Shown here: positions 863-17,744 of the stretch, piece after piece
Numbering within the stretch: the first letter of the stretch is position 1
Layout of the letters: each line of letters opens with the position of its first letter
DNA from: Promethearchaeota archaeon
Lineage (GTDB): Archaea > Asgardarchaeota > Lokiarchaeia > Sigyniarchaeales > SOKP01
Assembly: GCA_011364975.1 (NCBI GenBank)
Contig: RDOE01000067.1
Location: 1-17,744 of the forward strand
DNA: 17,744 nucleotides
Direction: 5' to 3'
Position numbers and translations under genes: made by a program
Notes under the pieces: generated by a model
Seen by the model: the letters and a program-made list of their open reading frames with translations, nothing else
Database searches by the model: none
What the model was told of the DNA's origin: nothing

Positions 863-988
863 GCAGAGATAACCAAGCCAGGTCAATGCATTTGGAAGTT
901 CTTGAATTGAAAATTTCAAGCGACAAACGGTGATGGACTCAAGATCCATTGTCATAGGACTACGGGAGTTCAAATCTCCCTCTCTGCA
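863..988 (+). tRNA. tRNA-Leu(CAA) with a 41-nt D-loop intron (887..927)
   Basis: Acceptor GCAGAGA/TCTCTGC plus discriminator A988; D-stem ACC/GGT; anticodon stem ATGGA/TCCAT with loop CTCAAGA (CAA at 940-942); variable arm GTC-ATAG-GAC; T-arm GGGAG-TTCAAAT-CTCCC. CCA is not encoded. Confidence 0.95.
887..927 (+). other. Non-canonical tRNA intron (about position 21/22) with relaxed bulge-helix-bulge
   Basis: GGTC-AA|T pairs against GACA-AA|C (one G.A mismatch); internal hairpin CTTGAA/TTCAAG. Removal restores the archaeal Leu D-loop AAGCCAGGTCAAC. Confidence 0.85.
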
Positions 989-13254: not shown

Positions 13255-14181
13255 TTATCCCTCATCTCGCAATATATATAGAGATATTTTTTCATCAAAG
13301 AATTGGTTATAATCCTTTACTATTTTTAAATCATTTTTATCTCTTAATACTACCATCTTTTTAGTAATATTTTCAATAAAATATTTCTCTTCATTTAGCA
13401 AAATCCAATCTGACTTTTTGAAAGGTAAGAATTTTACAAGAGTTTTTAACCTGTAAAGATTTCGACCTTTTTGAGAATCCCTTCCTACTAATTTTTGTGA
13501 TCGCTTCAATATAAAATGATAATTAGGCTTTAAAAATGAAATAATCTTTTTCATTAATTCATTAGTACTCAAATAAAGGTCAACTCCATATTTTTGATCT
13601 TCAAGTTTTGATATATATTGTCTATTATCTTCAAAAAACAGACTTTCTACATACATTTGTATTTTTGAAAGAGCATCTGCGATTACATCAAAAAAGATTT
13701 CATTACTTACTCTTAATTGGATGATTGATAAAAAATATATACCCGACTTTAAATTTGAACAATTTTTACAGAGTTCATAATTAATATTAATATTAACTCT
13801 TTGCTCATAAACTAATTTAACATTTTCAATTAGTTTACCTCTTACTATTAATGTAAACGATTTTATTAAACCACTTGAACTATAGATTAAGGTCTGATCA
13901 TCATGAATGAAAACAAAATCAATTAAATTTGATTTTAAATAATTTTTTAACAAAAATCTTTTCACTACTTCTTCAATTATAGAAAAAACATCATCCGATT
14001 GGCATTCTACCCATTCCTCTTTTTTAGAATATTTTCCACATTCATTACAAATTTTAATGGAAAAGGAATCAGGTAATTCAAATAAAGGATTTTCATTTAG
14101 GTAACAGTTCATACACATATTATAATGGGTGGATTTGTTGTCTAATGCTTTTCCACAAACAGCACAAAATCTATGAGGCAT
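13255..14181 (-). CDS. nmd3: NMD3-family large-subunit biogenesis protein
   Basis: CAVCG, CMNC, CNEC, CKNC, SIIQLR, GVDLYLST, KLVGRD...LYR. Confidence 0.92.
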   Translation of the reverse strand: MPHRFCAVCGKALDNKSTHYNMCMNCYLNENPLFELPDSFSIKICNECGKYSKKEEWVECQSDDVFSIIEEVVKRFLLKNYLKSNLIDFVFIHDDQTLIYSSSGLIKSFTLIVRGKLIENVKLVYEQRVNININYELCKNCSNLKSGIYFLSIIQLRVSNEIFFDVIADALSKIQMYVESLFFEDNRQYISKLEDQKYGVDLYLSTNELMKKIISFLKPNYHFILKRSQKLVGRDSQKGRNLYRLKTLVKFLPFKKSDWILLNEEKYFIENITKKMVVLRDKNDLKIVKDYNQFFDEKISLYILRDEG

Positions 14182-14477
14182 TAAAACATCATCTTTAAAG
14201 CCATTGGAATACCATTTATCTTCCGAACGCCATCTTCTGGTAATATTTTTAGATTAATCGCTCCGTTTGTTATATTCTCTCCAACTATATTGAAAAAGGA
14301 AGCTTCTTTTAAAATTTCCAATGCTTCCTCGATATCTAGAAGAGTTCCACCAAAAAATTGTTTATTTATCTCAATTCTTAAGTTTCCCTCTTTAAATTCT
14401 TGATCTATGAGCAATTCATCACAACAAGCTATGGTTTCAATACCATTTCGTCTATGAATTTTAAGATATACTTTCAT
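14181..14477 (-). CDS. DUF424-family protein
   Basis: MKVYLKIH...IACCDELLI...FFGG...NIVGE...INGIP. Start moved to ATG 14477 to avoid a long overlap with aIF2-beta. Confidence 0.88.
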   Translation of the reverse strand: MKVYLKIHRRNGIETIACCDELLIDQEFKEGNLRIEINKQFFGGTLLDIEEALEILKEASFFNIVGENITNGAINLKILPEDGVRKINGIPMALKMMF

Positions 14478-14491
14478 TTTTAAAATTCTCA

Positions 14492-14905
14492 CTACTTTTC
14501 TTTTATTTCTTCTCTTGCACCACATGCAGTACATTTAAGAAATAACTTTTTACCTTCTCTTTGAATTTCGGTATCTGGTTTATTACATATTCTGCACAAG
14601 ACATATGTTTTTGAATATTGTTCAATTAATTTATTTAATACTTGTTCTTTATAAGTTCCTTTTAAAAATAATTGTTGACCTCTTAGTTCTCCCATTGTTC
14701 CTGCCTTTTTTAAAAAAATCCCCATAAAATGCTTTTTATCACGATTCAAAGTGTTAATTATCTTGTTAAAATTAGTAATATATGTGTTTTTTGCCTCAAT
14801 TCGAATCTCGACAGTAGGAATTTCAAATCTCGAAGACTTTTTTACATTATCTGGAATCTTTTCATAAGCTTTATCCAATAGCTCATCGTAATTTCTTAAA
14901 TTCAT
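14492..14905 (-). CDS. eif2b: Translation initiation factor 2 subunit beta (aIF2-beta)
   Basis: YDELLDKAY, RFEIP, TNF...LNRD, YVLCRICNKPDT, LKCTACGA. Confidence 0.96.
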   Translation of the reverse strand: MNLRNYDELLDKAYEKIPDNVKKSSRFEIPTVEIRIEAKNTYITNFNKIINTLNRDKKHFMGIFLKKAGTMGELRGQQLFLKGTYKEQVLNKLIEQYSKTYVLCRICNKPDTEIQREGKKLFLKCTACGAREEIKEK

Positions 14906-15039: not shown

Positions 15040-15813
15040 TTAAAAGCTCTGATATAAATTTTCCTCTGATTGATATATTCTTGACTCCATTTCAAGATCC
15101 TTGATATAAGTCCTAATTTTTTCTTCAGGAATATTCAATTTTAATTTTAATTCACTTAGAGTAATTCCATTTCCATTTTGAGAATATTCTTCAATAATCG
15201 AATAAATATGTTCTTTAATTGTATTAACTTCAGGTGATCGATCATTTTCAAATAATGTGTCAATATCAATATCATCTGAAATATCGTTAAACAAGAATTC
15301 TTCTTCTGTGTTTAACGAATTATCCCTTTTTGAATAATCACCATCATCAGTTGGAATTTCATAGAGGTTCTCGTTTTTCATTTTTTTAATTATTTTAGCA
15401 TCATTTAGTAGAATGTAATTCGGACTATCTAGTAGGTTAACATTTTCAAGTGAAATTTGAACTTTATTATTCCAACTTCTAATTTTCCCAATTATATTTA
15501 CCATGTCTCCCCTCTTTAAATTTTTATAAAACTCAGAGTCAACATTCCACTTAATTGCAGAAATTACTCCAGAACCATCGTCTAAGATGAACCTATAATT
15601 GAGATTAGTATCTTTTGATATATCTTCATCATTAGATAATTTTTTACTAATTAATTCTTCCTTTTCGATAATTGTTGCAACCAATCTCGTCCTTTTGAGG
15701 TTTCCAAATATAGTAAATAGCGATTTATCTTGATCATTATATTTACCTTCTAGAATTTGTTTTATCCAACATTCTATAGCAGGAAAAAATTGGTAATTTT
15801 GGATATTTGACAT
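15040..15813 (-). CDS. RPA32/RPA2-like ssDNA-binding protein (OB fold, acidic linker, winged helix)
   Basis: RTRLVATI, FILDDGSGVISAIKW, GDMVNIIGKIRSW; C-terminal GITLSEL...IKDLEMESRIYQ. Alternative TTG start at 15825. Confidence 0.8.
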   Translation of the reverse strand: MSNIQNYQFFPAIECWIKQILEGKYNDQDKSLFTIFGNLKRTRLVATIIEKEELISKKLSNDEDISKDTNLNYRFILDDGSGVISAIKWNVDSEFYKNLKRGDMVNIIGKIRSWNNKVQISLENVNLLDSPNYILLNDAKIIKKMKNENLYEIPTDDGDYSKRDNSLNTEEEFLFNDISDDIDIDTLFENDRSPEVNTIKEHIYSIIEEYSQNGNGITLSELKLKLNIPEEKIRTYIKDLEMESRIYQSEENLYQSF

Positions 15814-15998
15814 TTTTAATTCCAAATCATTGAGATATAATGCTGATTATTATTCTATTTAAACTATTAAGCAAATAAAGATTTAATTATTAATACTTCA
15901 ATATTATTCATTTTCTGCAATAAGAGTTAGAAATCCAAACTCTAAACCTAAGTATTTTTTAGATGAAAAAGTAGCGGGGGTTCGATTTGAACGAACGA

Positions 15999-16029
15999 TT
16001 CCGCCGATTGCCCGTAAGTGAGCAAGCGT
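15999..16029 (-). other. Non-canonical variable-loop tRNA intron (about 46/47), 31 nt
   Basis: Relaxed BHB CTGA-GA|A against GCGG-AA|T; internal stem TTGCTC/GGGCAA. Removal restores the variable loop AGATC. Confidence 0.8.
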
Positions 16030-16038
16030 TCTCAGGGT

Positions 16039-16063
16039 ATCTCAATAGAGACATATCTCCGTT
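16039..16063 (-). other. Canonical 37/38 tRNA intron, 25 nt
   Basis: BHB: CTCA-TA|A pairs with TGAG-AT|A; internal hairpin GGAGA-TATG-TCTCT. Confidence 0.88.
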
Positions 16064-16258
16064 TATGAGCCCTGCGGCATAAACCAGGCTAGCCCACCCC
16101 GCTTATATTGTATTCTATAATAAATTAATCTTTTCTATGGTTTATATAATTATGATCTTTTAAAAGGTTTTATGATTTTATGCTATTTTAGTGGTATTTT
16201 TTTAGATATATATAAATTGTAATATAATTATATAAATTAAACGTTCCATTCTTCAAAA

Positions 16259-16993
16259 ATGGCAAACTCTCATTCAAAAAGCTTTTTTGGGCAAAATACA
16301 GGAATAATACTTACAAGTTGGTCAAAATATGAGCCATTTATTTTCTTAAATTGTATTAAGATGAAACCAAATGGTATTTGGGAAAAATTATCTGATAATG
16401 AAGGAAAAATTATTAAATTATCATTAGAAGAAATAATATTAATTTTAAGGGTATTAAATCGCCAAAATCTCATGTGGCAAAATATCCATCGTTATAAAGA
16501 TTCAAAAACATGCATCTCTTTTACCTGGCAAGATGCAGAAACTGATATCTTCTGGATAAACATCGATAATTATTCAAAAATGCTCAATCCCGCTCAAATA
16601 GAAATCCTAAGATTACTACTAACGCACATACTTCATGAAAAATTAATTTATTCAACTTCATTGGACCAAGAATTTAACAATAAAAAATCTGCAACATCGA
16701 ATGGAAATTCTCATAGCAATAATACAGAAGAAGAAAGTGCTGTTGAATATCTTGAAAGTATAGATTCGGAATTAAAACCTGATGAAGGTGAAAAATTTTT
16801 ATTAAATGATGTAACCAATATAGAAAGTATGATTATTAGCGAAACTGACAAAGCATTAATGCTTAAATTTGAAAACGATAAGATGTGGATCCCTAAATCG
16901 ACGATTCATAATCATTATGACCCAAAAAAAGAGTTAATCCAACACTTTTTAATTTCTAATTGGATTTTAAAGAAATATAAGATAATTTCCTAA
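16259..16993 (+). CDS. Hypothetical two-domain protein, candidate Whirly/PC4-like ssDNA-binding N-domain
   Basis: Apparent repeated strands-then-helix pattern with KIIKLSLEEI and KMLNPAQIEIL; low-complexity linker; C-domain ETDKAL...WIPKS. The CDS is solid, the function is inferred. Confidence 0.6.
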   Translation: MANSHSKSFFGQNTGIILTSWSKYEPFIFLNCIKMKPNGIWEKLSDNEGKIIKLSLEEIILILRVLNRQNLMWQNIHRYKDSKTCISFTWQDAETDIFWINIDNYSKMLNPAQIEILRLLLTHILHEKLIYSTSLDQEFNNKKSATSNGNSHSNNTEEESAVEYLESIDSELKPDEGEKFLLNDVTNIESMIISETDKALMLKFENDKMWIPKSTIHNHYDPKKELIQHFLISNWILKKYKIIS

Positions 16994-17097: not shown

Positions 17098-17744
17098 ATG
17101 GGAATGATGAATACTTTTTTAGAATTCTTTTTTAACCCTTGGTTCTTAATTTCACTAGTTTTTTGGGTTATTGTGATTTTCTTTGTTTTGATTTTAAAAA
17201 ATAAAAAAGGTGCGTATAATTTTTTCTTCCCATTATTAGCTATGTTTAAGACCAAAAAATTAAATAATATTATTGTAAATATCTCAAAGAGAAAACCAAA
17301 ATTCTGGCGGACTTTTTGGAATATCGGTATTTTTGTCTCATTCGGATTTACCATTTATGGACTTTTTTTCTTCTTCATTAATCTTTTAAATTTAATCTTT
17401 CAACCAAGTGTCGAACAAGCAATTGTCCCTCTAATACCAGGGGTTACAATTGATCTTCCAATTTTTTTCTATCTTATCTTACCCTTATTATTTATAATGA
17501 CAACACACGAATTTGCTCATGGTATTTCTGCAAGTGTTGATGGTGTTGAAATTAAATCAACGGGTATTTTAGGTGTAGGAGTTTTTTATTTAATCGGTTT
17601 TGGAGCTTTTGTAGAAGTTGATGAGCGAGAGCTTTTTTCTCAAAGACATAATAGAAATACAAGATTAAGAATAGCTTCAGCGGGGACCTCGATCAACGGT
17701 CTTACTGTACTTATTGCCCTACCAATTTTGATATTTTTTCCTAT
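17098..17744 (+). CDS. Site-2 protease (peptidase M50), 3'-truncated by the window edge, absent from the ORF track
   Basis: Manual translation MGMMNTFLEFFFNPW...PLIPGVTI...THEFAHG (HExxH at 17506-17520)...GAFVEVDE...RLRIASAG, with several transmembrane segments. Confidence 0.92.
   Translation, partial: MGMMNTFLEFFFNPWFLISLVFWVIVIFFVLILKNKKGAYNFFFPLLAMFKTKKLNNIIVNISKRKPKFWRTFWNIGIFVSFGFTIYGLFFFFINLLNLIFQPSVEQAIVPLIPGVTIDLPIFFYLILPLLFIMTTHEFAHGISASVDGVEIKSTGILGVGVFYLIGFGAFVEVDERELFSQRHNRNTRLRIASAGTSINGLTVLIALPILIFFP

Follow-up and report, generated by a model that had tools for sequence, protein, structure and literature searches.

The Whirly fold is known from proteins of plant organelles and of trypanosomes that bind single-stranded DNA (ssDNA) or RNA. 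The plant Whirly proteins (PBF-2/p24, StWhy2, and AtWHY1-3; Pfam PF08536) form a whirligig tetramer with helices at its hub and melt duplexes, and trypanosome MRP1/MRP2 (PF09387) form a heterotetramer that binds and anneals RNA; these statements follow a review of the Pur-alpha/PC4-like superfamily (Janowski & Niessing 2020; PMC7549692), in which the words "archaea" and "archaeal" have 0 occurrences. Whirly proteins are treated as plant-specific in a plant review (PMC9070903), and the one work found on Whirly and Asgard says in general terms, with citations of general structural papers, that all three domains of life have Whirly/Pur-alpha proteins. Here, we describe a gene on a 17,744-nucleotide stretch of Promethearchaeota archaeon DNA (contig RDOE01000067.1 of assembly GCA_011364975.1; Lokiarchaeia, order Sigyniarchaeales), the whole of which is called the window and has a G+C content of 25-33%. 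The gene lies at positions 16259-16993, and its two-domain product represents a new family, with an architecture of its own, of a known fold superfamily. We judge it somewhat more probable than the contrary that this predicted member of the Whirly/PC4-like fold is a tetrameric binder of single-stranded nucleic acid, with ssDNA the favored substrate. Among the literature matches listed for Whirly and archaea, none concerned an archaeal Whirly protein, and no published description of the family was found, subscription journals and supplementary Asgard gene-cluster tables being outside the search.

A sequence-only reading of the window had proposed an unrecognized archaeal protein of Whirly-like fold at positions 16259-16660. 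That interval is indeed coding, but it is only the first 134 codons of an open reading frame (ORF) of 244 codons, and the reading overlooked a second domain at residues 183-244, the paralogy of the family, and its narrow phyletic range. Comparison with other genomes indicates that the ORF is a real, conserved gene: a word-indexed search gave 234 homologues at E≤0.01 among 446 candidates, typically ~50% identical over their full length, and the cluster representatives returned by an exhaustive phmmer search numbered 333 at E≤1e-3, 205 at 1e-10, and 86 at 1e-30. "Unrecognized" was apt. Nearly all of the homologues to which a source gives a name are called "hypothetical protein", from metagenome-assembled genomes of Thor-, Hod-, Hermod-, Loki-, or Promethearchaeota, with one JGI entry carrying an antitoxin name; hmmscan matched 0 Pfam families to the 244-amino-acid protein at E≤1, the sole NCBIfam match fell below its cut-off (20.5 bits vs 45), and phmmer against PDB sequences gave no match to the protein at E≤10. 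The source genome (3.74 Mb in 200 contigs, 99.25% complete, 6.09% contamination) has three family paralogues, at 100, 46, and 39% identity. In an alignment of 51 family members, the conserved blocks are residues 1-135 and 183-244, with an unconserved stretch between them.

The evidence for the fold of the N-terminal domain comes from structure prediction. AlphaFold2, run on the family alignment (mean predicted local distance difference test score, or pLDDT, of 77.6), gave pLDDT values of 81-96 across most of residues 1-135 and placed there two successive units, the first with strands at residues 5-10, 14-20, 27-35, 41-43, and 52-55 and a helix at 56-66, and the second with strands at 72-79, 82-90, 98-102, and 105-109 and a helix from residue 111. 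The five AlphaFold2 models were concordant (mean pLDDT 74-78), and a different predictor, ESMFold2, also folded the domain confidently (pLDDT 89). Two sheets, each with a following helix, make up the Whirly fold; the model likewise has the PC4-like type I topology (four strands, helix, linker, four strands, helix, an intramolecular dimer of ~150 amino acids) and the Whirly-type fold of MRP1/MRP2. The repeated strands-then-helix unit of the sequence-only reading is thus seen in the model and is not seen in the sequence, where hhalign, set to align residues 1-69 of the family alignment with residues 70-136, gave a probability of 0.6% over 7 columns. The lack of a duplicated sheet-helix fold in a predicted structure had been named as one outcome that would tell against a Whirly-like protein, and the fold was found.

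Searches with the predicted structure were consistent in naming Whirly. Foldseek against the PDB gave 11 matches at E≤1e-3, every one a Whirly protein, led by WHY1 (4koo, E 9e-5) and followed by PBF-2 (1l3a), StWhy2 (3n1h/3r9z/3r9y), and WHY3 (4koq); WHY2 and MRP1/2 came next at E 1.0-2.2e-3, and PURA after them. A second structure aligner matched Whirly, MRP, Pur-alpha, and PC4-like chains, with far weaker matches to the Pur-alpha/PC4-like superfamily than to Whirly and MRP. The best match in BFVD was a "Whirly transcription factor [uncultured Caudovirales phage]" (E 6.3e-5). A look-up of residues 1-140 in a language-model Atlas, which compares sequence features and uses no structure, returned viral clusters in which Pfam Whirly was present on 25% and 12% of members, with scores of 0.92 and 0.90 and 213 and 204 of 256 features in common; shuffled proteins give a first match of ≥0.9 in 4-10 of 100 trials. 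The nearest Atlas clusters and the best BFVD match are thus tailed-phage proteins, some of them annotated as Whirly, in families with no assigned function. The four protein strings that the sequence-only reading had paired by eye with plant Whirly are present in the translation (residues 8-18, 41-63, 73-79, and 107-121) and occupy topologically matching elements of the model, namely strand 1-turn-strand 2, the last strand with helix 1, the first strand of unit 2, and the last strand with helix 2; no statistical sequence match supports the pairing. The domain has 19 aromatic or histidine residues (F/W/Y/H) per 135, of which W41, W73, W90, and Y105 are invariant, and its median isoelectric point (pI) over the 51 members is 9.0. 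As a predicted structure, the Whirly fold of the N-terminal domain is well supported, and to this extent "Whirly-like" was borne out.

A tetramer had also been suggested as a check. Four copies of residues 1-140 were co-folded with the family alignment as input and scored 0.83, 0.85, and 0.82, against 0.00 for the best control; at least 94% of contacts were common to the runs, and partner pLDDT was at least 88. Of proteins with a structure solved as a pair, 20 of 30 attained the mark against which such scores are read, and of those solved as a single chain 1 of 23 did so, in a calibration made with two copies rather than four. The copies touch through residues 1-7, residues 56-61 of helix 1, and residues 111-136 of helix 2, an interface that takes in the invariant or near-invariant H5, L56, L120, H123, I129, and T133. 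Each copy contacts two neighbors, copy 4 contacting copies 1 and 3, and in the model the helices are central and the sheets face outward, as in the Whirly homotetramer. The predicted assembly of the N-terminal domain is thus the helices-at-hub ring described for PBF-2 and MRP1/2.

The remainder of the protein is a linker and a second small domain. The linker has pLDDT <50 over residues 140-182, shows no conservation in the family alignment, and ranges from 32 to 76 amino acids. Residues 179-244 modeled alone gave a pLDDT of 89.9 and a four-strand barrel-like sheet with a short helix. In the genome's three paralogues this domain matches the functionally uncharacterized phage family phrog_8389 (E 9.1e-5, 1.9e-7, and 9.9e-6), PHROGs having no curated cut-off. 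Its weak fold matches are mostly to OB, S1, single-stranded DNA-binding protein (SSB), and RPA-type domains, none of them clear, and its Atlas score was only 0.81, which is a lead only. The median pI of the domain is 9.5.

Relatives of other build were also seen. One protein of 258 amino acids (P0192) has two tandem N-terminal domains and no C-terminal domain, one of 995 (P0162) has an N-terminal domain and then ~830 residues without a Pfam family, and one of 372 (P0207) has a very long Gly/Ser/Pro-rich linker. At E≤0.01, Pfam was silent for 15 of the 16 longer relatives scanned (290-995 amino acids), and the remaining one showed a single match below the cut-off. Some genomes of one genus (G030, G159, G117, and G192) carry copies of the N-terminal domain only, covering profile positions 1-137/142 in ORFs of 143-224 amino acids. 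A few copies contain in-frame stops (one TAG in G255, two TGA in G117, and three stops in G210) and are probably pseudogenes. For expression, the 20 runs listed, from 6 studies, included no RNA data set that holds the gene.

One IMG/VR record (G301; loci L084-L088) encodes a relative; it is a genome of 43,882 bp that bears direct terminal repeats and is rated 100% complete by CheckV. The virus is tailed, having genes for a portal, a large terminase (E 5.6e-27), a tape measure, and tail proteins. Its 139-amino-acid ORF is the N-terminal domain alone (E 1.8e-58 to the profile of that domain), and a 307-amino-acid ORF ends in the C-terminal domain (phrog_8389, E 7.5e-5). The C-terminal-domain gene comes first and the N-terminal-domain gene is adjacent, so that the virus, unlike the cellular protein, carries the two domains as two genes in the opposite order. 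The co-directional run before them encodes a thymidylate kinase, a thymidylate synthase, a Cas4-type nuclease, PCNA, and a zinc ribbon, and the run continues after the N-terminal-domain gene with a MoxR-type ATPase and VWA; elsewhere in the genome are a D5-type primase, uracil-DNA glycosylase (UDG), a dUTPase/MazG-type enzyme, and a methyltransferase. No OB-fold SSB was recognized among those viral ORFs of at least 100 amino acids that were scanned. In a quick IQ-TREE phylogeny of 83 N-terminal domains including the viral copy, the latter fell inside a cellular group (group A, described below) with three cellular rows, with a Shimodaira-Hasegawa-like approximate likelihood ratio (SH-aLRT) support of 99, a best identity of 66%, and a long branch. 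To judge from this tree, the viral copy was likely captured from a host, and because its N-terminal domain is nested among cellular group-A copies, an Asgard host is pointed to for the virus. A tblastn search of 50,697 deposited phage records gave no family match at E≤1.

On the cellular side, 75 of 301 genomes drawn evenly from the phylum had a family match, with 1-6 matches (mostly 2-3) in each. All 68 genomes of the window's own taxonomic family were positive, as were four of seven from a second family of the same order and the only genome (1/1) from another family of the same class, and the other 27 families gave one match in 225 genomes (E 5.6e-4); the larger of these families had matches in 0/28, 1/76, 0/19, and 0/21 genomes. 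As compared across these genomes, the family is class-restricted and paralogous, and not pan-Asgard. The phyletic survey called for by the sequence-only reading found the family in its own Asgard class and essentially missing from the other Asgard classes sampled, and "archaeal" was correct for the named relatives, which are all Asgard metagenome-assembled genomes (MAGs) save one contig labeled as a bacterium. In a species-representative genome collection, 102 stretches encode a relative; 80 were kept, and all of these bar one are titled as an Asgard MAG or "uncultured archaeon". The exception (L038; DATKTW010000006.1), titled "Candidatus Nanopelagicaceae bacterium", carries the whole archaeal block of DUF424, aIF2-beta, the RPA32-like gene, the family gene, and M50; it hardly differs from Asgard loci, and mis-binning is the probable cause. 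Record titles place the relatives in Thor-, Hod-, Hermod-, Odin-, and Lokiarchaeota, whereas the taxonomy-based survey places them essentially in the window's own class alone, which reflects either loose MAG titles or two differing taxonomies.

Table 1. Positions of the gene, its parts, and neighboring features in the window.
Feature	Positions	Strand	Description
Whole gene	16259-16993	+	244 codons plus stop; open ORF, two-domain protein (P0001)
N-terminal domain, residues 1-135	16259-16663	+	Predicted Whirly/PC4-like type I fold
Linker, residues 136-182	16664-16804	+	Variable, polar, predicted disordered; net charge -9 in this copy
C-terminal domain, residues 183-244	16805-16990	+	Predicted small beta-barrel plus short helix; conserved ET.KA.L...WIPKS motif
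RPA32-like gene	15040-15825	-	Divergent; tRNA_anti-codon OB (E 1.8e-9) plus C-terminal winged helix RPA_C (E 1.7e-4)
tRNA-like element	15972-16104	-	133 nt, G+C-rich, between the RPA32-like gene and the family gene
M50 peptidase (site-2-protease-type)	17098-17742	+	Co-directional, downstream, runs off the window; Peptidase_M50 (E 7.2e-10)

Gene neighborhoods were surveyed at 83 loci, 41 of which, including the window's copy, make up group A. A FastTree phylogeny of 82 full-length rows (one row <200 amino acids was left out) sets the 40 syntenic rows apart from the remaining 42 on a weakly supported branch (60). The neighborhood is fixed in group A: one strand holds genes for a KH protein, one or two RIO kinases, DUF424, aIF2-beta, and the RPA32-like protein, and on the opposite strand the family gene is accompanied by those for the M50 peptidase, a PP-loop ATPase, an ArsA/Get3-type ATPase, and a Pelota/eRF1-type protein. 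The M50 peptidase follows the family gene in 40 of the 41 loci. The RPA32-like gene lies upstream in 38 of the 83, all 38 of them in group A; two of the other three group-A loci have too little upstream DNA, and one (L042) has a different upstream region. In the window, the genes nearby belong to archaeal information processing, with aIF2-beta (E 1.4e-30) and DUF424 among them, and the RPA_C match scored 22.7 bits against a cut-off of 22.6, so that the divergent arrangement with an RPA32-like gene had been read correctly. The KH-RIO-DUF424-aIF2-beta block beside the RPA32-like gene, seen at 14181-14905 (minus strand) of the window and in group-A loci, is strictly conserved in 35-38 loci. Group B, the largest non-syntenic group (about 27-30 rows), has a Ras-type GTPase, a class IV aminotransferase, a thioesterase, acetyltransferases, and a HAD hydrolase nearby, and group C (about 12 rows, including one paralogue from the source genome) adjoins a CoiA-type nuclease, a histone-deacetylase-family gene, and a PDCD5-type gene for a double-stranded DNA-binding protein.

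The element between the RPA32-like gene and the family gene had been called an initiator tRNA-Met gene. By eye it does have an initiator-type acceptor stem (AGCGGGG...), a CAU anticodon, and apparently two introns, but neither ARAGORN nor Rfam called a tRNA there; when two introns were cut out on trial in 3306 ways, ARAGORN reported tRNA-Met(cat) for 408, which is soft support only. The element was matched in 40 loci, all in group A, the 41st lacking that DNA, and in many of the 40 both ends show 100% identity. Elsewhere in the window, at positions 863-988 (plus strand), Rfam called a tRNA of 126 nt over the full model at 43.2 bits, which probably holds an intron; ARAGORN called none in the window.

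Taken together, these data suggest the following mechanism, in which fold, ring, and domain limits are predictions, and conservation, paralogy, synteny, and the viral copy are drawn from comparison. Each N-terminal domain would consist of two four-to-five-stranded sheets with a helix after each, and four such domains would form a ring whose hub is made up of the N-terminus and both helices and from which the sheets face outward, like the tetramers of plant Whirly and trypanosome MRP1/2. The outward basic, aromatic-rich sheets would bind single-stranded nucleic acid without sequence specificity, and the flexible linker would tether the second small basic barrel, which may provide an additional nucleic-acid contact or a docking site for a partner. 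The role would be protection or annealing of ssDNA during replication and repair. Four things lead us to infer single-stranded nucleic-acid binding: the predicted Whirly fold, the predicted ring, sheets that are basic and rich in aromatic residues, and a viral copy that sits in a replication module. An ssDNA substrate is favored because the virus pairs the gene with PCNA, thymidylate enzymes, and a nuclease, because group A has the RPA32-like neighbor, and because group C adjoins a nuclease and a double-stranded DNA-binding protein.

The resemblance to plant Whirly would lie in the predicted homotetrameric ring held by helices and in the basic, aromatic-rich sheets. Unlike the plant proteins, the Asgard protein has an extra C-terminal beta-barrel on a long linker and is archaeal and cytoplasmic rather than eukaryotic and organelle-targeted; identity in structural alignments is 10-11%. 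MRP1/MRP2 is a heterotetramer, whereas the Asgard model is a homotetramer, and hmmscan gave the family no hidden Markov model match to it; we know of no editing system in archaea.

Several observations weigh against a Whirly-type ssDNA binder. The family fold and the ring rest on predictions, and the ring score may echo the predictor's memory of solved Whirly/MRP tetramers. Sequence methods gave no link: Whirly, MRP, PUR, and PC4 are not among the 25 listed of the 28 Pfam families matched by the 51 members at E≤10; the PF08536 model searched against the whole genome at E≤10 gave 0 matches with 3 candidates scored; and the N-terminal-domain profile found no Whirly, MRP, PUR, or PC4 among PDB sequences at E≤10. 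The PF09387 model also gave 0 matches in the genome, but its control was equally silent and the search is uninformative. KGKAAL is a motif typical of plant Whirly, at the first strand pair, and unlike plant Whirly the Asgard family consensus has no KGKAAL-like string, residues 9-15 reading FFGQ.TG. The protein is thus Whirly-like in predicted fold and is not a member of Pfam family PF08536. In addition, the best structural match, MRP1/2, binds RNA and not DNA; the C-terminal domain's only named sequence likeness is to RNA-processing Rpp29 (E 0.014-0.035); the surroundings of group A are otherwise concerned with translation and ribosome biogenesis (KH, RIO, DUF424, aIF2-beta, PP-loop ATPase, and Pelota/eRF1); and the group-B neighborhoods have no nucleic-acid theme.

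Some of these points bear on the nature of the substrate, and RNA is a serious rival to ssDNA. The same fold and ring could belong to an MRP1/2-like binding or annealing factor acting in the maturation of tRNA, rRNA, or other RNA, with an Rpp29-like barrel as a second RNA module. Besides the identity of the best structural match, the C-terminal-domain profile aligned to RNase P Rpp29 and MTH11 in the PDB at E 0.014 and 0.017 (Rpp29 range 0.014-0.03, below significance), RNase_P-MRP_p29 (PF01868) was the commonest weak Pfam match (8 of the 51 members, best E 0.035, below cut-off), and group A adjoins both the tRNA-like element and a translation/ribosome-biogenesis block. The Rpp29 likeness, however, falls short of all cut-offs, and Rpp29 is absent from the 50 best fold matches to the domain; MRP1/2 and the two plant Whirly structures differ by only 1.5-2 in structural Z score. 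Because it lies on the opposite strand, the tRNA-like element is not co-transcribed with the family gene, and the viral copy accompanies PCNA, thymidylate enzymes, and a nuclease rather than RNA genes. We consider an RNA substrate rather unlikely.

A further reading, to which we give slightly less credence again, is that the Whirly-like fold serves as a protein-protein scaffold or oligomeric adaptor without any nucleic-acid role, in the manner of SsgA/SsgB. It would accommodate the group-B neighborhoods, the lack of the sequence motif of the known Whirly DNA contacts, and the membrane protease that is the downstream partner in group A. However, the Z score for SsgA was about half that for the nucleic-acid binders, both folded domains are basic on median, the viral gene sits in a replication module, and the weak fold matches of the C-terminal domain are mostly to domains of OB, S1, SSB, and RPA type. 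That the Whirly likeness is an artefact of structure prediction hiding some other true fold, to which the sole use of predicted structures, an alignment shallow in diversity (one archaeal class), the silence of sequence methods, and the Atlas scores of shuffled proteins lend some color, is very improbable given the agreement of five AlphaFold2 models (most of the N-terminal domain above pLDDT 81), the separate ESMFold2 model, and the convergence of two structure aligners and a structure-free method on Whirly.

A role in defense was considered separately and rejected. According to PMC12065111, sPC4/Whirly domains serve as sensor domains in the bacterial Menshen and Shedu systems; PADLOC gave one match only, at E 0.37, and no effector domain was found.

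With the ssDNA-binding reading preferred, a bolder version can be framed, in which a class of Asgard archaea and their tailed viruses would run a second, non-OB, Whirly-fold tetramer SSB system beside RPA and PCNA in replication and recombination, ancestral to organellar Whirly and MRP, which would themselves not be eukaryotic inventions. We regard this as a long shot, and common descent with the eukaryotic Whirly families is not claimed because there is no sequence link. In a paper on the replication machinery (PMC12680538), the terms RPA2, RPA32, and SSB have 0 occurrences. The weight of the finding is limited by the near absence of matches in the other Asgard classes sampled, large ones included, and, again, by the missing link to eukaryotic families. 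If the prediction is true, a conserved "hypothetical" protein that occurs at 2-6 copies per genome throughout an Asgard class would nevertheless gain a fold and an activity open to testing, it would mean that the archaea most studied for the origin of eukaryotes have a candidate single-strand-binding system beside RPA, and it would document an exchange of domains between Asgard archaea and a tailed virus that sets the domain in its replication module.

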